Below the pieces are notes generated by a model. The model was not told the origin of the DNA. It did no database searches and saw nothing but the letters and a program-made list of their open reading frames with translations. This document shows, one piece after another, positions 8,611 through 59,460 of a DNA stretch of 64,000 nt. This DNA comes from an uncultured Gammaproteobacteria bacterium. GTDB taxonomy: Bacteria; Pseudomonadota; Gammaproteobacteria; GCA-001735895. The position numbers were made by a program, and so were the translations under genes. The stretch lies in contig CAYZQE010000002.1 of the NCBI GenBank assembly GCA_964480635.1, positions 11,101 through 75,100 on the forward strand. Direction: 5' to 3'. Every line of letters begins with the position of its first letter. The stretch's first letter is position 1.

Positions 8611-9776
8611 TGAAGCATCTATTCTTCATTATATGTCTCTTTAGCGCGCCATTTAGTTACGCTGAGTCTACCCATAAAAATAGCTATGAGCTTGAAGTTT
8701 TAAGCACTGCTCTCGACATTCAAAATGCACGAGTGGATGCTGCTTTAACTAAAAGTAAGGCCTTAACTGAAAAATACCCTAACAGTAAAGTCGCTCACTT
8801 AATGTATGCCGATATGTTATTAGCACATATTCAACCCTTAAAAACTATTGGTGCAGGCTTATCAAATAATAGCTTACAAATTTCTAACTTAAGCGCTGAG
8901 TTAAAAAAACGATTTAATCATAATCAGTCGTATTCATTTAAAGATATGATCCCCAGTGACGTTTTATTGTTAGCCAATAACCAGCCTTACGTCATTATTG
9001 CTGATATGACTGAAGCTAGAGTGTATGTGTTTCGAAATGAACAAGGCATACCCGTTTATGAAACAGATTTTTTTCTTACTATTGGTTTAAAAGGCTTTGG
9101 TAAAAATGTAGAGGGTGACCAAAAAACACCTTTGGGGGTGTATCACTTCATTAATTATATTGACGGGAAAAAACTACCTGATTTATATGGTACTGGCGCT
9201 TTCCCTATTAATTACCCCAATATATGGGATCGAAAACTAAAACGCACTGGTAGTGGTATATGGTTACATGGCACACCGTCCTATACCTACAATAGAGCGC
9301 CTCAAGCGAGTGATGGCTGCTTTGTTCTGAGTAATGCCGATATGCTTCGTATAGACCGTTATATTTCGACTGTGACCCACACACCTGTGTTGTTAGTTAA
9401 AAATATTTCTTGGGTGAGTACGGCACAATGGCAAGCTGAGCAATTAAAAGCACTACAAATGTTTTCTTTATGGCAAAAAGATTGGGAAAGTTTAAGTCAT
9501 GACAATTTAATGACTCACTACTCTAAAGATTATCTAGTCGACGGACGTAACTTTAAACAAATATCGGGTCATAAAAAATGGGTCAGCCGTAAAAAAGAAT
9601 ATATCCATATGGAATATTCTAATTTAAGTGTTTTCCAATATCCTGGCGAAAAGAACCTAATGCTTTTAAAATTTACTCAAGACTATAAGAGCAATAATTA
9701 TAATTCAATCACTGAAAAAGAATTGTATTGGACCAAGGATGATGATGGTGAATGGCGTATCCTCTTTGAAAGCTAG
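8610..9776 (+). CDS. L,D-transpeptidase family protein (YkuD domain)
   Basis: Signal peptide. C-terminal catalytic signature GSGIWLHGTP...SDGCFVLSNADM with the His/Cys dyad. Start is translationally coupled to the TPR gene. Confidence 0.7.
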   Translation: MKHLFFIICLFSAPFSYAESTHKNSYELEVLSTALDIQNARVDAALTKSKALTEKYPNSKVAHLMYADMLLAHIQPLKTIGAGLSNNSLQISNLSAELKKRFNHNQSYSFKDMIPSDVLLLANNQPYVIIADMTEARVYVFRNEQGIPVYETDFFLTIGLKGFGKNVEGDQKTPLGVYHFINYIDGKKLPDLYGTGAFPINYPNIWDRKLKRTGSGIWLHGTPSYTYNRAPQASDGCFVLSNADMLRIDRYISTVTHTPVLLVKNISWVSTAQWQAEQLKALQMFSLWQKDWESLSHDNLMTHYSKDYLVDGRNFKQISGHKKWVSRKKEYIHMEYSNLSVFQYPGEKNLMLLKFTQDYKSNNYNSITEKELYWTKDDDGEWRILFES

Positions 9777-9847
9777 CCCGAATATTGCCTGATAATGCAA
9801 TATTCGAGCTAGGTTGCTTTTCTTAAAAACACTTTATTCCAGACATA

Positions 9848-9873
9848 AAAAAACCAGCCTTAGCTGGTTTTTT
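9848..9873. terminator. Bidirectional rho-independent terminator between the L,D-transpeptidase (+) and rpsT (-) genes
   Basis: aaaccagc-ctta-gctggttt stem-loop flanked by A-run upstream and T-run downstream, so a U-tract follows the hairpin on either strand. Confidence 0.65.
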
Positions 9874-9893
9874 AAATGATAGACAATAAAGCC

Positions 9894-10157
9894 TTAAGCA
9901 ATTGCGACAACTTGCTTATTTAAACGGCTCTTTTGACGAGCTGCCTTATTAGCACTAATTAGACCTTTAGTTGCTGCCTTGTCTAAAATAGGAGAAACTT
10001 TTTTATAGGCTTCTTGAGCTTTCTCTTTATTTCCGCTAGCAATTTCTGCTAAAAGTTGTTTTACGTATGTACGCATCATAGAACGCTGACTGGCGTTACG
10101 TTGACGACGACTTTCCGCTGTTTTAGCGCGTTTTTTTGCAGATGCTGAGTTAGCCAT
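9894..10157 (-). CDS. rpsT: 30S ribosomal protein S20
   Basis: [34 protein letters not shown]... is a canonical S20. Confidence 0.9.
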
Positions 10158-10241
10158 GTTTATCCTAGGTATTCAATAAAAAATAAGGCGCGCATTATCT
10201 TTATTTGGCGCTCTACTGTCAACCATGTTTCATCATTATTG

Positions 10242-10436
10242 TTATTTATTTGTATTTTTAAACTGTAAAATTTTTGCAGTGGCATTATTTTCAATTTTTT
10301 TCGGCTTTTCTGTGTGAAATAATGATGCTAATTGTTTATTTAGATCCACTAAAGAATCCATCATTAACGCTAAATAACGGGCTTGTTCGGCCTCGATACT
10401 ATTCGAACGCCTTTTTTCACTTTGCATGATAAACAA
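10242..10436 (-). CDS. Small hypothetical protein (possibly fragment of a frameshifted gene together with ORF 10482-10667)
   Basis: ORF only, with no recognisable motifs. Lies in the 440-bp gap between fadD and rpsT. Confidence 0.2.
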   Translation of the reverse strand: MFIMQSEKRRSNSIEAEQARYLALMMDSLVDLNKQLASLFHTEKPKKIENNATAKILQFKNTNK

Positions 10437-19593: not shown

Positions 19594-19728
19594 CTATGGA
19601 GTTAGGCGAGCTCTACCTTTTGCTCTACGTGATTTTAATACCTTGCGACCACCAGTGGTCTGAGTACGGGCTCTAAAACCATGTGTACGGGCTCTTTTAA
19701 TTTTACTAGGTTGATATGTGCGTTTCAT
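19594..19728 (-). CDS. rpmH: 50S ribosomal protein L34
   Basis: Complement translates to [44 protein letters not shown] (44 aa). Below the ORF-track size cut-off. Located immediately upstream of rnpA as in most bacteria. Confidence 0.85.
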
Positions 19729-19767
19729 GTTACTTCCAAAAGTGTCGACTTAAAAACAAGGCGCGAT

Positions 19768-19796: not shown

Positions 19797-19844
19797 TCTT
19801 TATTTTAACTAAGTGCTATTTATTCACTATAAGTTATATTAATT

Positions 19845-20050
19845 AAGAAATCTCTTAACATATCAATAAAATTTTAAGCGTTATCAAGCTGTCGGCAATT
19901 ACTCCTGCATTGCTCTACTAAGTTACATCCATGTGGCTTTCCTACAGGTCGCTGCCAAATTACCACCAGCGTTAGTTATCAAATCTTGTGGTATCTAGAT
20001 GACAATGATTTGGCTTAGATAAAAATTATGGACTTAATCAGAGCATCCTT
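19845..20050 (-). mobile_element. Degenerate, internally deleted copy of the TIR element (MITE-like) in the rpmH-dnaA intergenic region
   Basis: 20026-20050 is a perfect reverse complement of the 25-bp TIR AAGGATGCTCTGATTAAGTCCATAA of the copy at 54835-55145. The ~130 bp upstream aligns with the interior of that copy (CATCCATGTGGCTTYCCTACRGGTCG..TGCCAAAT...TATCTAGATGAC...TTTGGCTTAGATAAAAA), with a deletion between the internal inverted-repeat arms. The other terminus (19845-19880) is decayed (aagaaatctcttaacatatcaat vs AAGGATGCTCTGATTAAGTCCAT). Confidence 0.6.
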
Positions 20051-20097
20051 AAGCTTTTACTGTATCCTATTCTTTTATTTAATACTGAGTAATAGCT

Positions 20098-52542: not shown

Positions 52543-53181
52543 TTAGTTTTTGTCATCTTTGAATTCAATAGCCCAATGACTACCGTCACAAAATGGCTTG
52601 TTTTTTGACGCTCCACAGCGGCATAAGGCCGCTTGATTTTTTGCCGCACCTTCGCCCGACTTGGTATCAACTAACGCGATATCACCTGAAACAACATAGG
52701 GGCCATTAGGAGCAACCATGACAGCAGAGTTGGCATTGGCTTTGACATTATCATCGTCTTTTTTAAGGGTGTAACTCAAAGCCCCTGAAGGACATTTGTT
52801 GGTAATATGGGTGATTTCTTCGATGGATGCGGCATCAGCATCAACAAAAGGCTCTTGTTTTAGTCGAAAGACAGCGGCTAAGTTATCGGTACACACCCCT
52901 GAGTGAGCACAGATACTGCGGTTGTCGAATATGGTTATTTCTGCACCGCTATAGCTGTCTATTTTGTCCTCTAAACGCCCTTCAATTTTAGCTGAATTAA
53001 ACCCAATGGTTTGGTGAGACCCATCACAAAATGGCTTGTTTTTTGAAGCGCCGCAACGACATAAGGCGAGTGTTTCATCAGCGTCTATTAGACCCTTTAT
53101 ATTAAATAGCTTATCTACATTTTTGACGATGTAAGGCCCATTTGGCATGGGTGTTATAGTTGTTTTTGTAGCTGAACTCAT
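52543..53181 (-). CDS. Tandem CDGSH iron-sulfur domain protein (mitoNEET-like)
   Basis: Two copies of C-x-C-x2-S-x3-P-x-C-D-G-S-H (LALCRCGASKNKPFCDGSHQ and ALCRCGASKNKPFCDGSHW). Confidence 0.75.
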   Translation of the reverse strand: MSSATKTTITPMPNGPYIVKNVDKLFNIKGLIDADETLALCRCGASKNKPFCDGSHQTIGFNSAKIEGRLEDKIDSYSGAEITIFDNRSICAHSGVCTDNLAAVFRLKQEPFVDADAASIEEITHITNKCPSGALSYTLKKDDDNVKANANSAVMVAPNGPYVVSGDIALVDTKSGEGAAKNQAALCRCGASKNKPFCDGSHWAIEFKDDKN

Positions 53182-53228
53182 TTTAATCCCTCTTTTGTTG
53201 ATGTTTTTATTGAGTGCCTAAAAAGGCC

Positions 53229-53816
53229 TTATATTTTTTCTGCAAAAGCCTGCACCACAGCTCCTGTGCCGTTATGACATTCACCCTCGTGTATGTTGCG
53301 TATCTTTTCTTCCAAACTAATAAAATTAAGGCCATTAAATTCACGATTAAGAATATCACTATCCATCATCATAGCTGCATTCGGTGGGCCACCTGTTTGA
53401 TAGGTTAATTGTTGCGGTGTATAGGCCTCAAGTAATAACAAACCTTTATGACGAAGACCTGCCACACAATTGTTATGCACTTTTTCACGCAAGGGTGGCG
53501 GTAAATGGCAAAAAATTAAGATAATGGCATCCCATTGCTCTATGCCAATATCATATTCGGCAAGATCAGCATGAATGGTGGTTATCTTTACATCATTATT
53601 TTTTGCTAACAATTGCGCTTTTTTAAGGCCAACGGCTGATAAATCAACAGCAGTCACATCATGGCCTTGTTGTGCTAACCAAACAGCGTTTCTACCTTCG
53701 CCTTCAGCGAGACAAAGCACTTTACCAATAGGCAGTTCACTACCCATCGACACTAAAAAATCATTCGCTTTAGTACCATAGGCATATGTTTCACCGCTGT
53801 ATCGTTTATCCCACAT
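53229..53816 (-). CDS. Class I SAM-dependent methyltransferase, TehB/TPMT-like
   Basis: Motif I VLCLAEGEGRNAVWLAQQGHDVTAVDLS is similar to the TehB VLDLGCGNGRN... region. 195 aa. Confidence 0.6.
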   Translation of the reverse strand: MWDKRYSGETYAYGTKANDFLVSMGSELPIGKVLCLAEGEGRNAVWLAQQGHDVTAVDLSAVGLKKAQLLAKNNDVKITTIHADLAEYDIGIEQWDAIILIFCHLPPPLREKVHNNCVAGLRHKGLLLLEAYTPQQLTYQTGGPPNAAMMMDSDILNREFNGLNFISLEEKIRNIHEGECHNGTGAVVQAFAEKI

Positions 53817-53828
53817 TTTAGTCTCCTT

Positions 53829-54090
53829 AAGGAAATCCTGATTAACTCCATAATTTTTATCTAAGCCAAATTATTGTCAGCTAGGCATCGGATTGTAGTG
53901 TCATCTAGATACCACAAAATTCGATAACAACGCTGACGATCATTTGGCAACGACCCGTAGGGCGATCTATCAAGCCATTCTCTCCGTCGTTCCAACTTTC
54001 ACTAAGGACTCGTCATTAGTTTCAAGTTGCGCCTAGGATAGAACGGCTTGATAGATCGTAAAAGTTTATGGAGTTAATCAGGATTTCCTT
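53829..54090. mobile_element. MITE-like element copy A (262 bp) with perfect 25-bp terminal inverted repeats AAGGAAATCCTGATTAACTCCATAA
   Basis: Left TIR 53829-53853 and right TIR 54066-54090 are exact reverse complements. The interior is shared with copies at 54835-55145 and 19845-20050 (TTTTTATCTAAGCCAAA..., GGCAACGACCCGTAGGG..., internal 19-bp inverted repeat CGATCTATCAAGCCATTCT/AGAACGGCTTGATAGATCG). No ORF. Confidence 0.7.
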
Positions 54091-54104
54091 AAGAGTGTTC
54101 AAAA

Positions 54105-54488
54105 TTATTTAATGACTCGAAAAAAACCGATTTGGCGAATCGCAATTGCGGTGAAAAGCATGGCGATTATCCATAAAACTGGCCCAACAATACCAGGGAA
54201 CAAAGGAAAATGTTCTGGTACCAGTATATGAACGATATATCCAATATCTGAAATAGCTGCAATACTCAGATTAAGCCAAAAGCCAAGACGACTATTCTTC
54301 CAATTGAGCATTATGGCAATAATGCTCACCGCAATCGCGATGAATAGTAGATTCCAAGCATCCTGATAGACTCTGCCTTGAACAATTCCTGGTTCTAATA
54401 ACAACCCTAGCTGATAAGTTGCTATAGCTGCTTTTACATGTACCAAGCCCCAAAGCAGATAGAGTACAGAGCCTATTTTATGCATCAT
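54105..54488 (-). CDS. Hypothetical 4-TM membrane protein
   Basis: 127 aa, four hydrophobic helices. Flanked by MITE-like copies A and B. Confidence 0.4.
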   Translation of the reverse strand: MMHKIGSVLYLLWGLVHVKAAIATYQLGLLLEPGIVQGRVYQDAWNLLFIAIAVSIIAIMLNWKNSRLGFWLNLSIAAISDIGYIVHILVPEHFPLFPGIVGPVLWIIAMLFTAIAIRQIGFFRVIK

Positions 54489-54498
54489 GTCTTAATCC

Positions 54499-55802
54499 TC
54501 AGTCGACTCGAAGTGCCATGATGATTTTATAGCAATGATCTTTCGTCCAGATATCTACGCCACCTAATCTTTTAGTCCACTTAGGTTCAGTTAAGCTTGC
54601 GCACTTTAACGAGACGGCATTTAAATAGGTATCAAACAACAGTGAGGTATTTTCAAAACCGACTTTACCAGCAATTTCATAAAAACTGACTGTCTGTAGT
54701 GCTTTGCCAGCATTGGTTTGAATATCGAACATATACTGTTTTTGAACTTCAACATCATCACGTGTTGCTAGTCTGCCCCAATGACCTGATACCAAGGTGT
54801 TAAAATCATAAGATAAAATCACATCATGAGACTTAAGGATGCTCTGATTAAGTCCATAATTTTTATCTAAGCCAAATTTTACTCAGCTAGGCGTAGCATT
54901 GCAACGTCATCTAGATACCGTAAAATGCTAGAACGACGCTGGGTGAAATTTGGCAACGACCCGTAGGGAAGCCACATGGATGTGGTGAATGTCGATAATG
55001 CAGGAGCATTTATCGACCTAGCTATCAAGCCATTCTATCCGTCGTTCCAACTTTTACTAAGGACTTGTCATTAGCTTCAAGTTGCGCCTAGTATAGAACG
55101 GCTTGATAGCTCGTAAAATTTTATGGACTTAATCAGAGCATCCTTCATAAAGCCGATGCTATCTTCTGCTATGGCTAGACCTTTAAAGGGTGTCCAGCCA
55201 GGGAAAACAATATCAACCTTCATTAATACTTTTTGTTTTGGCGCATATACATAAATATTGCCCGGCTCATGATCATCGCCTTTATATTCAAGTTTTAAGG
55301 TTTGATTGCCGACGTTTAAAGTATAGTTGTCTTCAAAAGTAACAGTCGGCATTGGTACTGGTTTGCCACCAACAAACATGCCATAAGGAAAAGGCCTGTC
55401 CTTATCATTCATGCGCTCTAAACGATGTTTAGTTTGTACATGAGCAATGTATGTTGCATTTTTAGGAAAAAGATATGCCCCGCCGATATGGTCGGCATGA
55501 GCATGGCTATAAACAACATGAGTAATCGGCTCATCGGTTACCTCTGCAATCGCTTTTAGCATTTTGTCACCAAATGAAGGCGGTGCATCAACGACAATAA
55601 CGCCCTGCCCTGTGGTTAAAAACATGGCGGTATACGCACCTTCTGTTACCCAATACAGACCGTTATTAATTTCTTTTACGGCATAACCTTTATCTTGTGA
55701 AATAGGCACACCTTTGGCTATATCTGGAACGGGGGCGACGGCATAGGCTAATGAATGGCTCATTAAAAATGATAAAGCCAGTAAAATTACTTTTGTGGAC
55801 AC
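54499..55802 (-). pseudogene. MBL-fold metallo-hydrolase (subclass B3-like beta-lactamase family) split by insertion of MITE-like copy B
   Basis: N-terminal part (55802->55146) has a signal peptide and the B3-type zinc motif YSHAHADHIGG. It reads into the element TIR (…GFM then KDALIKSIKF… encoded by the element) and terminates there. The remaining C-terminal fold (…DVILSYDFNTLVSGHWGRL…) resumes in another ORF immediately after the element (54834 downward, GTG-initiated in the track). Confidence 0.65.
54835..55145. mobile_element. MITE-like element copy B (311 bp) with perfect 25-bp TIRs AAGGATGCTCTGATTAAGTCCATAA, inserted in the MBL-fold gene
   Basis: Left TIR 54835-54859 and right TIR 55121-55145 are exact reverse complements. 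No coding capacity. 311 is not a multiple of 3. The interrupted host gene is continuous in similarity on both sides. Confidence 0.75.
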
Positions 55803-55900
55803 TTTGTCTCTCCTTTAAAATTGAAAATAAAGTCTATTGTTTTATTTAAAAGACATATACTGCCTAACTGGCAACTCATTGTTTCCTTGGAGAGACCAAT

Positions 55901-56785
55901 ATGAACATACTTACGATGATGGAAACATTCGCCACTGTGGTAGACACAAACAGCTTTACTGCAGCCGCTGATCGACTTCAATTATCAAAATCGTTTGTTA
56001 GTAAACAAGTGTCTCAACTTGAAGCCGAGCTGGGGACACGCTTGATCCACCGTACAACACGTAAATTAAGCCTGACAGAAGAAGGTGCGATTTTTTATAA
56101 ACATTGCCAGCTCATTATTTCGGAGGCAGAAAATGCTAAAGCTGAAATTCTTGAAAGCCAAAGCTGTCCGCGCGGAAAAATTAAAATTACCTTACCGCAA
56201 AGCTTAATTATTGCTGGGGCCGGTGAAACACTGGTTAAATTTCAACAAACTTATCAAGAGGTTGAGTTAGATGTCATCGTTGGAGGGTCATTTTTAGATT
56301 TAATCGATAACGGCATTGATTTAGCAATAAGGATAGGCCAGTTGGAAGATTCAACCCTAATTTGTCGTAAACTTAGGGCATGTTTTTATCATGTTGTTGC
56401 TTCTCCAGACTATATAAAAAAGCATGGTTCACCGCAAAAGCCGATGGATCTTAAGGCACATAATTGTTTGATTTATGGGAAATCGGATGAAGCTAGCCTT
56501 TGGTCATTTCGTACAGAAAATAACGAAACCACAACGTTAAAGGCTAAAGGTAATTTAAGCACAGACGATGGTTTATTAATTGTTGATGCGGTGCGGGCTG
56601 GCATGGGGGTTGCCTTTGGACCCAATTTTTTATTCAATAAACACATAGAGTCGGGTGCTCTGAGCCTTTTGTTACCGACGTATGTGCAGCCCACAGGAGT
56701 ATTCGTAATTTATCCTGCCAACCGAAATCTTCCACAAAGAGTTAGAGTGCTGATAGACTTCCTTAAAGAACATTTATCTTTTTAA
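55901..56785 (+). CDS. LysR-family transcriptional regulator, divergent from the MBL-fold gene
   Basis: N-terminal HTH (FTAAADRLQLSKSFVSKQVSQLEAELGTRLIHRTTRKLSLTEEG) and LysR substrate-binding domain. 98-bp divergent spacer. Confidence 0.85.
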   Translation: MNILTMMETFATVVDTNSFTAAADRLQLSKSFVSKQVSQLEAELGTRLIHRTTRKLSLTEEGAIFYKHCQLIISEAENAKAEILESQSCPRGKIKITLPQSLIIAGAGETLVKFQQTYQEVELDVIVGGSFLDLIDNGIDLAIRIGQLEDSTLICRKLRACFYHVVASPDYIKKHGSPQKPMDLKAHNCLIYGKSDEASLWSFRTENNETTTLKAKGNLSTDDGLLIVDAVRAGMGVAFGPNFLFNKHIESGALSLLLPTYVQPTGVFVIYPANRNLPQRVRVLIDFLKEHLSF

Positions 56786-57774
56786 AAATTAGCCGTCATT
56801 CTTTTAAGTGGCGCTTGTTGAAGCTCGGAAAATTGCTCTCGTAATTCAAGGATATGCTCGCCCCAGTAGTTTTCTGTATTGAACCAAGGAAAGGCCATTG
56901 GAAAAGCGGGGTCAGCCCACCTTTTTGCAAGCCATGCGGCATAGTGCATCATTCTTAACGTTCGCAGCGCCTCAATAAGAACCAGTTCAGCATCGTTGAA
57001 TTCATAAAACTGTTCATAGCCTTCTAATATAACGTCTAATTGAAGCTCTCTGTCTTTACGCTCTCCACTTAGCAGCATCCATAGGTCTTGAATAGCGGGG
57101 CCTGAACGGCAATCGTCAAAATCGACAAAAGTGGGTTTATCATCGTGCCACAAAATATTCCCGGGATGGCAATCGCCATGCAAACGAATCGAACAATAAT
57201 CGACTTGTTCAAAAATGGAGATCATTAAATTAATGAGGTCTTGGCTCAGGCTCTCATATGCAGGCAGTAAAGATTTAGGGATGAAATTGTTATTGATTAA
57301 GAATTCACGGCTTTTAATGCCATAGCTTAAAATAGTTAATTCAGGCCTGTAAATAAAAGGACGCTCAGCGCTGATAGCGTGAAGTCGCCCTAAACTACGG
57401 CCTAAAACTAAAAGGGTATCTAAGTCGTCCAGTTCTGGGGCATGTCCACCCGCGCGTTCAAACAAAGTGAAAAGGAAGCCTTCATGTTGATGTAAAGAGT
57501 CCGCTTTTGCTTGTTTTATTGGAGGGACTAATGGCCATTCGGCATCAGCCAATTCAAAACAAAACTGATGTTCTTCTGATATTTGATCTTTAGACCAGCG
57601 ATCAGGTCTGTAAAACTTAGCAACAAGAGGTTTTTGGTCTTCAATGCCTATTTGATACACCCTATTCTCATAACTATTTAGAGTATTTATTCGACCATCG
57701 CACTGATACCCTAATGATTCTACTGCATCAAGGATATGCTCTGGTTTCAATTTACTGTAAGGATGCGCGTTCAT
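56782..57774 (-). CDS. srkA: Stress-response Ser/Thr kinase SrkA (YihE)
   Basis: Collinear with E. coli YihE: LNSYENRVYQ, RLHGDCHPGNILW, FVDFDDCRSGPAIQDLWMLL, RWADPAFP. Confidence 0.8.
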   Translation of the reverse strand: MNAHPYSKLKPEHILDAVESLGYQCDGRINTLNSYENRVYQIGIEDQKPLVAKFYRPDRWSKDQISEEHQFCFELADAEWPLVPPIKQAKADSLHQHEGFLFTLFERAGGHAPELDDLDTLLVLGRSLGRLHAISAERPFIYRPELTILSYGIKSREFLINNNFIPKSLLPAYESLSQDLINLMISIFEQVDYCSIRLHGDCHPGNILWHDDKPTFVDFDDCRSGPAIQDLWMLLSGERKDRELQLDVILEGYEQFYEFNDAELVLIEALRTLRMMHYAAWLAKRWADPAFPMAFPWFNTENYWGEHILELREQFSELQQAPLKRMTANF

Positions 57775-57921
57775 TTATTTAATAGAGTTTTTAAAAACCA
57801 AAAGTTAGTACAACATTAATGATAAAAAGCGGAATAGGGTTTCTTATCTTACCATCATACCGATTAACCTGCTTGTCGATGGTCGGTTATCAGATGAAAT
57901 AATGGGCTCTTAACTTAGCGC

Positions 57922-58596
57922 TTAAAACTCACCCCAAGAATCATTCTTTTTCCATTTAATGCGCGTGACAATGATGCCAATTAAAAAAGCGAGTAAAGAC
58001 ACGCCAGAACCTCTAATAAACCAATCCATAGCAGTGCTGTCTTTATAGCTATTATTTTCGGCTAATAACTGCGCTTTATCTGTTTCAAGTTGAAAGATAA
58101 GAGTTTGTTGGTCTTTGTTTTGTTCAATAATCGCAATCGTATTTCTTGTTGCTGATTTTAGTTGCTCTAATTCTTCGGCAGTATCTATTAGTTGAGTAGT
58201 TAATGATTTTGCTTGAGAGTCCGTGTTGCTATTGATTTGATTTAATTCTTTTAATTCAGACCTTAATGCCTTAATGGTTTCATTTTGTTTTTTACTTTTA
58301 ATGTCAAGTGTTGAAAACTGTTCGCGCCCTGATGGCAAGGTGTCGAGAAAACGAGTCAGTACATAACCTTGTTTACCCTTTGAAGTTTCAACCAGAGAGT
58401 ATTTAGTGGCGTCATCGTGCTCAATAAACTTAACGGCTTCGCCACTTTTTAGCATGGTTAAAATACTGTTTGTTGTGCTGGTGCCAGTTCGTAAAGTTAC
58501 TTTAAATTCATCGGTAATATAGCGCGTCTCTGCCCAGCTAAGAGAAGATGATGATAATGCAGCTAAGATGATTATTTTTAAAATTGAGAATTTCAT
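57922..58596 (-). CDS. SH3 domain protein, YgiM/TIGR04211-like (signal peptide, SH3b, coiled coil, C-terminal TM)
   Basis: MKFSILKIIILAALSSSSLSWA signal, SH3b-like YITDEFKVTLRTGTS...GYVLTRFL, long coiled coil, C-terminal GVSLLAFLIGIIVTRIKW. Confidence 0.6.
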   Translation of the reverse strand: MKFSILKIIILAALSSSSLSWAETRYITDEFKVTLRTGTSTTNSILTMLKSGEAVKFIEHDDATKYSLVETSKGKQGYVLTRFLDTLPSGREQFSTLDIKSKKQNETIKALRSELKELNQINSNTDSQAKSLTTQLIDTAEELEQLKSATRNTIAIIEQNKDQQTLIFQLETDKAQLLAENNSYKDSTAMDWFIRGSGVSLLAFLIGIIVTRIKWKKNDSWGEF

Positions 58597-58847
58597 AAGA
58601 GTCAGTTAAATTAAGTTGTGAAGTGCCATTATTTTATTAATAACAGGAATTTAATTTATTCAGTGCGTTGATAAATGGTGGGATAGAGCCGTGAATATAG
58701 CTTTGCATAAGAGAAAAAATAATAACAACGGGTTCAATTTTTCTTTATATTTAGAGCTATATTAGAATATTAACATAATCTTAAAATATGATGAAGAAAT
58801 TTATGTCGACCTCTATCGTTGGCGTAAATGAGAAGAAAAACACCGAT

Positions 58848-59231
58848 TTATTTCTCAGTTAATAATTCTATTTGGTAACCATCTGGGTCTTCAACAAAAG
58901 CAATGACTGTTTGTCCTGCATTCATCGGCCCCGCTTCGCGTAAAATTTTACCCCCCATCGCTTTGATTGATGCGACGGCTTTATAAACATCGTCAACAGC
59001 AATGGCAATGTGGCCAAAACCATTGCCTATATCATAGCTGCTTGTGTCCCAATTAAAAGTAAGTTCAAGAGCGGCCTGCTCTTTTTCATCACCATAACCC
59101 AAGAACGTATTGGTAAATTTGCCATCAGGGTATTCTTTTTGGCGTAGCACGGTCATGCCTAAAATATCGGTATAAAAAGAAATGGATTGTTGTAAATTGC
59201 CAACTCGTAGCATGGTGTGAAGAATTCTCAT
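58848..59231 (-). CDS. gloA: Lactoylglutathione lyase (glyoxalase I)
   Basis: MRILHTMLRVGNLQQSISFYTDILGM...GHIAIAVDDVYKA...IELLE. Canonical 127-aa GloA. Confidence 0.9.
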   Translation of the reverse strand: MRILHTMLRVGNLQQSISFYTDILGMTVLRQKEYPDGKFTNTFLGYGDEKEQAALELTFNWDTSSYDIGNGFGHIAIAVDDVYKAVASIKAMGGKILREAGPMNAGQTVIAFVEDPDGYQIELLTEK

Positions 59232-59460
59232 TTTGACCGTCTTTATATCGTGTTAGTTAAGGAGACATTGAACAAGTCCAATAATTTTGAACTTGCTAAA
59301 ACTGCCGATATTTTCACCGAAAATCGCAGCAATAGAGCGACTATTACGACTCATTTCGACGAAAATAGCGACAGTTTTTTCTGCGCTCAAATTTTATTAA
59401 CTTAATCAAAGGCTCCTTAATGTTACATTATGACGGATAATTTTAAAGAGAGAGAGAAAA

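Follow-up and report, generated by a model that had tools for sequence, protein, structure and literature searches.

The window, a stretch of 64,000 nucleotides from contig CAYZQE010000002.1 of an uncultured gammaproteobacterium, contains a minus-strand gene for a protein with a metallo-beta-lactamase (MBL) fold that is split by a MITE (miniature inverted-repeat transposable element). Very probably, a recent insertion of a non-autonomous MITE of the IS5 family knocked out a conserved gene for a periplasmic MBL-fold hydrolase, which is not a classifiable beta-lactamase. The interrupted gene is an ordinary MITE-caused pseudogene and the element represents a new IS5-type MITE family. A sequence-only reading of this DNA had described the open reading frames (ORFs), the element repeat, the YSHAHADHIGG motif and the divergent LysR gene, all of which are present as described. 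Its central proposal, that a MITE splits a single MBL-fold gene, is confirmed, since both halves belong to one family, relatives carry an empty site and the reading frame is restored when the element is removed.

The element in the gene, copy B (54837-55143, plus strand, 307 bp, GG...CC), has 30-nt terminal inverted repeats (TIRs; GGATGCTCTGATTAAGTCCATAA), forms a strong predicted hairpin and contains no transposase ORF. It interrupts the MBL-fold gene after codon 219. The native N-terminal part is located at 55148-55802 on the minus strand; its GTG start codon at 55802 has an AAGGAG ribosome-binding site upstream, the part aligns with the JGI metagenome contig L001 (79% identity to L001 5903-6658), and codon 219, the last native one, ends at 55146. 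The ORF as it is now read (55802-55077, minus strand) encodes 241 amino acids, 219 of them native and 22 read from the element, before it reaches a stop codon; this tail (KDALIKSIKFYELSSRSILGAT and the stop) occupies 55077-55147. The C-terminal part (54499-54832, minus strand) encodes residues 220/221-330 and the stop codon. The ORF in this part (54822-54499, minus strand) has 107 amino acids when read from an internal GTG, and its frame is open back to the element. Copy B is flanked by a target-site duplication, which reads TTAA on the side of the C fragment (54833-54836) and TTCA on the side of the N fragment (55144-55147; TGAA on the gene strand), with one mismatch to TTAA.

Deletion of 54835-55145 (311 nt, corresponding to the element and one TTAA) fuses both ORFs in frame and yields a protein of 330 amino acids. 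A database search with the restored protein gave about 2000 relatives. Most of the best 120 have lengths of 327-335 amino acids, and more than 100 of the 120 cover 91-100% of the query with 58-85% identity; intact homologues with 75-85% identity align to it over the full length. The NCBIfam models for SoxH-related proteins (residues 63-269) and VarG (residues 40-271) align across the junction; the Pfam Lactamase_B match stops short of it. The full-length homologues together with the two models that span the junction show that the two halves are parts of one protein. An uninterrupted locus in relatives had been proposed for comparison and is found in L001, which encodes an MBL protein 85% identical to the restored one and has the gene order LysR (divergent), MBL, a transmembrane protein of 126 amino acids, methyltransferase and CDGSH protein. 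Window and L001 are colinear on both sides of copy B with 79% identity, and the empty site in L001 reads GGTTTTCTTAAGGCG, with TTAA exactly at the position of copy B. The L001 gene is thus a single uninterrupted frame, not two separate ORFs lacking an intervening repeat, and the two halves align to one family, not to different ones. Contig L001 contains no element in the spacer between the transmembrane protein and the methyltransferase gene either; this spacer is 75 bp long. Altogether, empty sites for copy B and a second copy of the element, copy A, were found in three contigs (L001, L004 and L116), and for a third, copy C, in one (L192). An entry that seemed to represent a second genome with the same truncation (P0075) is the 241-amino-acid product of this genome itself and was rejected. 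Just downstream of the conserved cluster with the intact locus, L001 carries a gene for an IS110-family transposase (9233-10276).

All three copies in the window are TTAA-flanked and have the terminal repeat GGAWNCTCTGATTAAGTCC. Copy A (53831-54088, plus strand, 258 bp, TTAA at 53827-53830 and 54089-54092) is located in the spacer downstream of the gene for a protein with four transmembrane segments (4-TM protein), upstream of a methyltransferase gene. Copy C (19847-20048, minus strand, 202 bp, TTAA at 19843-19846 and 20049-20052) has one degenerate terminal repeat and is located in the rpmH-dnaA spacer. The target duplications are TTAA/TTAA for copies A and C and TTAA/TTCA for copy B. With their lengths of 202, 258 and 307 bp, the lack of coding sequence, the TIRs, the duplicated 4-bp flanks, the multiple copies and the empty sites in relatives, the elements have the properties of MITEs. 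The arms of copy B are 30 nt long and 93% complementary (54835-54864 and 55116-55145); copy A, which the repeat search delimited to 53826-54093, has the same orientation and 33-nt arms with 94% complementarity. Copies A and B share the direct-repeat families D1 and D2 (81-90% identity). A core of 21 nt from the terminal repeat occurs five times in the window, where 0.05 occurrences are expected. Both copies fold as single strands into long hairpins, with z-scores of -11.8 for copy B and -13.8 for copy A. With 73-90% identity between copies A and B, the element family itself is older than the insertion of copy B.

An Rfam scan of 53000-56000 detected no family and only miRNA matches at chance level, a blastn search with copy B against a plasmid collection gave nothing relevant, and a 34-nt element pattern had no match in the metagenome contigs. 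In a scan of genome contigs with a 16-nt repeat core, nearly all of the matches listed were chance singletons; L051 and a few matches of the repeat type were informative. L051 (5507-5597, Gammaproteobacteria bacterium MAG.318) contains a partial copy of 93 nt with 86% identity, a solitary left end without the right end and with GGAA instead of TTAA at its flank, which is probably a truncated remnant. Comparison of the copy C region with L192, a related genome with a GyrB 89% identical to that of the host, showed 231 bp in the window against 30 bp in L192, where the element is absent; this comparison rests on BLAST coordinates, as the MAFFT alignment of the AT-rich spacer was uninformative. Such presence and absence differences between relatives support the mobility of the element. 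Copy C lies between rpmH (about 19600-19730, minus strand) and dnaA (20098, plus strand), in the region of the dnaA promoter and possibly of the replication origin. Copy A has its target TTAA within reach of a translation signal: the TTAA overlaps the methyltransferase gene's ribosome-binding site (TTAAGGAGACTAAAATG; 53814-53835 and 54085-54100). There the native spacer has only about 24 bp, and the duplicated TTAA rebuilds AAGGAG, so that the translation signals of the methyltransferase gene are kept.

TTAA is palindromic, and in the window alone a duplication of this sequence cannot be distinguished from a longer inverted repeat. Therefore, a wider collection of metagenome elements with the same ends was made. 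The 42 distinct elements in it are small, in most cases with a length of 131 or 158 bp, and are bounded by GGAAGCTCTGATTAAGTCC. Identical 4-bp flanks are present in 32 of the 42, and all except one of these have the sequence YTAR (CTAG, TTAG, CTAA or TTAA); among the 31 YTAR-flanked elements, 15 have the non-palindromic pairs TTAG or CTAA. It has been reported that IS5 duplicates a 4-bp YTAR upon insertion (PMC5009759). Comparison of the element ends with those of Escherichia coli IS5 showed matches at 15-16 of 24 positions, in register. A contig of 1.2 kb (L168, JAAUXY010119084.1, 1-1205) carries two nested IS5-like elements with the same type of ends, TTAA followed by GGAATCTCTGATTAAGTCC on one side and GGAACCTCTGATTAAGTCCATAA followed by CTAA on the other; one of the two sits at a TTAA within the transposase gene of the other. 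The L168 transposase genes are 43-52% identical to E. coli IS5 InsH, and their relatives in the plasmid collection are annotated as IS5 family. A Nitrobacter IS5-family copy begins with CTAA followed by GGAAGCTCTGA. Because of the YTAR flanks, the IS5-like ends, the presence of the same repeat type on IS5-like transposase genes and the Nitrobacter copy, the window elements are classified, on the basis of their sequence, as IS5-group MITEs, an assignment that holds for the repeat type as a class and not for the particular transposase that moved the window copies.

MITEs with GGAAGCTCTGATTAAGTCC ends were found in L033, L080, L095 and L099, which belong to the metagenome-assembled genome (MAG) MaH-09apr19-245, and in many Ga0194061 and Ga0194049 contigs (L123-L190). 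This group represents a GC-rich bacterium with dozens of MITEs of 131 and 158 bp and YTAR flanks. The label 'Bordetella parapertussis' of the MAG looks doubtful.

The restored protein starts with a Sec-type signal peptide (MSTKVILLALSFLMSHSLAYA followed by VAP) in its N-terminal part and has the YSHAHADHIGG motif at residues 98-108. The metal-site residues H100, H102, D104, H105, H178 and H237 are present and invariant, and the D72 and D197 motifs are also present. H237 (in SGHWG) is the last metal ligand and is carried by the C-terminal part, as is a helical C-terminal domain with invariant H319 and C320. Pfam Lactamase_B (PF00753) is matched with 59-60 bits (gathering score 22.7), with the five superfamily motifs present. 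In the AlphaFold model of an orthologue (predicted local distance difference test score 91.8) the helical C-terminal domain is visible. Sequence, profile and fold comparisons with the PDB all have the same best match, 8D2Z (Foldseek E-value 8e-17, TM-score 0.63-0.67; profile E-value 8e-18), a 'metallo-beta-lactamase superfamily protein' of Burkholderia cenocepacia that is uncharacterised. Chlorothalonil dehalogenase, B1/B2 enzymes and the alkylsulfatase SdsA1 come next. Paper searches found no publication on the function of 8D2Z or on the repeat sequence. The family of periplasmic MBL-fold hydrolases to which the gene belongs is widespread and very highly conserved.

The gene had been assigned to the subclass B3 enzymes by the sequence-only reading. 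According to this explanation, a B3 MBL similar to L1, GOB or FEZ-1 is controlled by an AmpR-like LysR inducer, and the insertion switched off beta-lactam resistance. The signal peptide, HxHxDH, H178 and H237 indeed form the same ligand set as the Zn1 and Zn2 sites of B3 enzymes, and a LysR gene divergently adjoins the MBL gene. Moreover, LysR-regulated MBLs exist: in VarR-VarG of Vibrio cholerae the LysR gene is divergent from a B1-like MBL gene (PMC5595328), and in CARR-blaCAR-2 the regulated enzyme is a B3 MBL (PMC12434095). The NCBIfam model for subclass B3 (bla_subclass_B3, NF033105), however, is matched with only 30.4 bits against a cutoff of 240, and the match is restricted to residues 44-183. 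All other beta-lactamase models are also far below their cutoffs (B1 52/200, B2 40/240 and class-B core 54/100 bits). L1, GOB-18 and AIM-1 are the weakest PDB matches, limited to the N-terminal part with profile E-values of 6e-5 to 7e-4, and the top 50 Foldseek hits include no B3 enzyme. The definition of a B3 enzyme used here requires the Zn ligands H116/H118/H196 and D120/H121/H263 and, at position 221, a residue that is no ligand, in most cases Ser. The window protein has the His and Asp ligands, but HMMER aligns its Asp197 with BBL position 221 of the C221D mutant of BcII (2NXA). The BcII R121H/C221D mutant outscores wild-type BcII. The Asp197 pattern fits the H-x-H-x-D-H / H / D / H site that MBL-fold hydrolases have in general, and HxHxDH is a general motif of the MBL superfamily. 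In addition, the protein has an extra helical domain of about 90 residues that resembles those of 8D2Z, chlorothalonil dehalogenase and SdsA1, and the recurrent partner genes (CDGSH, TehB/TPMT methyltransferase, cytochrome b561 and DrsE_2) are not resistance-like. We therefore regard a silenced B3 resistance gene as very unlikely and reject the B3 label. On its sequence, the split gene encodes an MBL-fold protein that is not classifiable as a beta-lactamase of subclass B1, B2 or B3.

The insertion had also been thought to be recent, and this view was borne out. The restored coding sequence contains no frameshift or stop codon in 990 nt, and the restored protein shows no deviation at the 94 near-invariant columns of an alignment of 61 family members. 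In comparisons with relatives, the ratio of nonsynonymous to synonymous substitution rates (dN/dS) is 0.03-0.05 and does not exceed the values for pairs of intact orthologues. The neighbouring genes are still full length. An old and tolerated interruption, either as a split enzyme that still works or as a long-standing pseudogene, would agree with the divergence of copies A and B, which indicates that the family has not freshly expanded, and with the changed base in the duplication. The intact coding sequence and a dN/dS as low as that between intact orthologues nevertheless speak against it. Further points against an old interruption are that the C fragment has no ribosome-binding site and the internal GTG as its sole possible start, and that H237 and the C-terminal domain are cut off from the other residues of the metal site. 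An old interruption has, in our estimation, very little chance of being correct. With a coding sequence that is otherwise undamaged and a duplication that differs at a single base, the insertion of copy B is evolutionarily recent, though not brand-new.

An artefact in which metagenome assembly or binning placed the repeat in the gene by mistake is hardly conceivable. It is true that the source is metagenome-assembled, that repeats break assemblies and that the Logan contig L118 (SRR9822617) stops inside the element. However, the element sits at a TTAA with a duplicated flank, and no target-site duplication would arise from a chimera. Moreover, the exact frame returns when the element is removed, and L118, an independent assembly that begins 36 nt inside the element and is 100% identical to window positions 55110-59298, reproduces the junction between the N-terminal part and the element.

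Several observations weigh against a recent knockout by an IS5-type MITE. The independent assembly covers the junction on the N-terminal side only, and the duplication at copy B is imperfect (TTAA and, on the gene strand, TGAA). The palindromic TTAA could, from the window alone, be an extension of the inverted repeat, and the 64-kb window holds no cognate transposase. The closest relative, L116 (90% identity), has ATCAAA instead of TTAA at the site, and we infer the ancestral target sequence for this reason. L116 encodes Ile (ATC) where the window has Met (ATG). The simplest history would be an ancestral ATT-AAG, an insertion at TTAA and then a single T-to-G change. Because the genome was assembled from a metagenome, the population may also contain an intact allele. 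Finally, we infer the loss of the enzyme and the polarity on downstream genes from the sequence.

In the event proposed here, an IS5-family MITE would have inserted at a TTAA within the gene for the periplasmic MBL-fold hydrolase. The added DNA, 307 bp plus the 4-bp duplication and thus 311 bp, shifts the frame and introduces stop codons. Because neither the element nor the window contains a transposase (no transposase similarity was detected anywhere in the 64 kb), the element was presumably mobilised by an IS5-group transposase that acts in trans, recognises GGAWNCTCTGATTAAGTCC ends and produces YTAR duplications. The product now has at most 241 amino acids and is missing both H237 and the entire helical C-terminal domain, so that the enzyme is almost certainly inactive.

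The insertion might also affect the downstream gene for the 4-TM protein (54105-54488, minus strand; 127 amino acids, four hydrophobic segments), which is the conserved partner of the MBL gene. The gene starts 10 nt past the MBL stop codon and GAGGA overlaps that stop, which makes translational coupling of the two genes probable. As the coupled gene now lies about 700 nt past the premature stop, its expression should drop, and the 4-TM gene is probably under-expressed. A scan for promoters and terminators found no more sites than in shuffled sequence, and an outward promoter in the element is thus unsupported. Copies A and B are direct repeats that bracket the C fragment and the 4-TM gene in the same orientation, as had been pointed out before together with possible recombination or deletion. 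The arrangement is correct; homologous deletion between the two copies is possible on paper but would be inefficient and is disfavoured, because the longest identical run is only 26 bp. A composite movement of copies A and B would need a transposase. L116 was considered as a product of such a deletion and rejected: it lacks the 4-TM gene, but its MBL gene is intact and element-free. In L116, only 72 bp (849-922) separate the end of the MBL gene from the methyltransferase gene behind it.

On the other side of the split gene, a LysR-type regulator (55901-56785, plus strand; 294 amino acids with HTH_1 and LysR_substrate domains) is encoded divergently. The spacer of 98 bp between the two genes (55803-55900), a promoter/operator region, is intact and shares one conserved block with L001 and L004. 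Of six relatives of the locus, four (L001, L119, L004 and L120) have a divergent LysR gene and two (L121 and L122) have none. The window LysR is 85% identical to the neighbour of the MBL homologue in L001, 54% to that in L119, 52% to that in L004 and 44% to that in L120. This conservation beside the hydrolase makes a regulatory pair likely. Among the NCBIfam models, YafC matches the regulator best (231 bits, cutoff 470), and YafC/AaeR-type regulators are nearest, while the model for the beta-lactamase regulator PenR gives 61 bits against a cutoff of 625. By these scores the regulator is not AmpR-like; of the ampR/bla-type pairing suggested earlier the conserved divergent arrangement stands, and the likeness is architectural only.

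Downstream of copy A, the same cluster continues with a gene for a TehB/TPMT-like S-adenosylmethionine-dependent methyltransferase (53229-53816, minus strand) and ends with a gene for a CDGSH / Fer4_19 iron-sulfur protein (52543-53181, minus strand). The 4-TM protein is 67-75% identical to its partners in L001, L004, L119 and L120 and matched no Pfam or NCBIfam family. Genes for CDGSH, TehB/TPMT, cytochrome b561 and DrsE_2 proteins recur near MBL homologues, and this genomic context points away from resistance. In L119 (3440-3964) and L120 (2701-3928 and 6192-7094), genes for a cytochrome b561-like protein, DrsE_2 and a second MBL-fold protein join the cluster, which may serve as hints to the pathway.

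The two nearest GyrB matches of the host organism have 89% and 83% identity, and the others ('Gammaproteobacteria bacterium') have about 73%. Between the MBL-fold protein and its copies with the labels Methylococcaceae, Methylophagaceae, Ghiorsea, Nitrospiria, Bauldia and Omnitrophica, the identity is 75-80%. The MBL-fold protein is thus more conserved than GyrB (about 72% to most gammaproteobacterial GyrB proteins), and the co-located LysR is far less conserved (44-54%). This pattern suggests horizontal spread of the MBL-fold gene or extreme constraint on it.

We tentatively propose that the broken gene might be one copy of a horizontally mobile, uncharacterised periplasmic module, consisting of the LysR regulator, the MBL-fold hydrolase with its helical C-terminal domain and the 4-TM partner. 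Its companions are often the CDGSH Fe-S protein, the TehB/TPMT-like methyltransferase and cytochrome b561, and the identity of the hydrolase among Gamma-, Alpha- and Zetaproteobacteria, Nitrospiria and Omnitrophota amounts to 75-80%, above the value for GyrB within this lineage. If this is true, the module would carry out a specific and strongly selected chemistry other than beta-lactam hydrolysis, for example the detoxification or redox processing of a small S, Se or Te compound or of a xenobiotic, and its loss through a MITE would mark it as dispensable in this habitat.

Annotators should combine the two ORFs into a single entry marked as a pseudogene, and not as a B3 beta-lactamase or a resistance gene. 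The locus defines an IS5-type MITE family (GGAWNCTCTGATTAAGTCC ends, TTAA/YTAR target) with activity in an uncultured lineage of the Gammaproteobacteria, and provides a dated example of gene loss through a MITE. The very conserved, uncharacterised MBL-fold and 4-TM module is the more interesting object than the insertion.

Both the element and the module resemble known systems. E. coli IS5 (InsH) shares with the window elements ends of the type GGAAG..GA..AAGTCC and the YTAR target, whereas the window elements have only 202-307 bp, contain no transposase gene and have an internal sequence unrelated to IS5. The Correia elements of Neisseria and the RUP elements of Streptococcus pneumoniae are classical bacterial MITEs that disrupt or remodel genes. 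Like the window elements, they are short, AT-rich, hairpin-forming, bounded by TIRs and multicopy, are located between or inside genes and vary in their presence among relatives; unlike them, they depend on a different transposase superfamily and have the target TA instead of TTAA/YTAR.

VarR-VarG has the same layout of a divergent LysR gene and a gene for a periplasmic MBL-fold protein, and the VarG model is among the best NCBIfam matches (E-value 2.6e-20). The score of 73 bits against a cutoff of 750 shows that the window protein is not a member, and the window locus differs in its partner genes and in having no adjacent efflux pump. With the subclass B3 MBLs (L1, GOB, FEZ-1 and AIM-1) the protein has the common MBL fold, HxHxDH and the periplasmic location in common; it differs from them by the Asp at position 221, the extra C-terminal domain and a core that is nearer to B1/B2. 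Sequence identity to 8D2Z and to the chlorothalonil dehalogenase Chd (6UXU) is only 14-20%, but both proteins match over the full length, with the MBL core and the C-terminal helical domain; Chd is a dehalogenase, and a shared substrate is not indicated.

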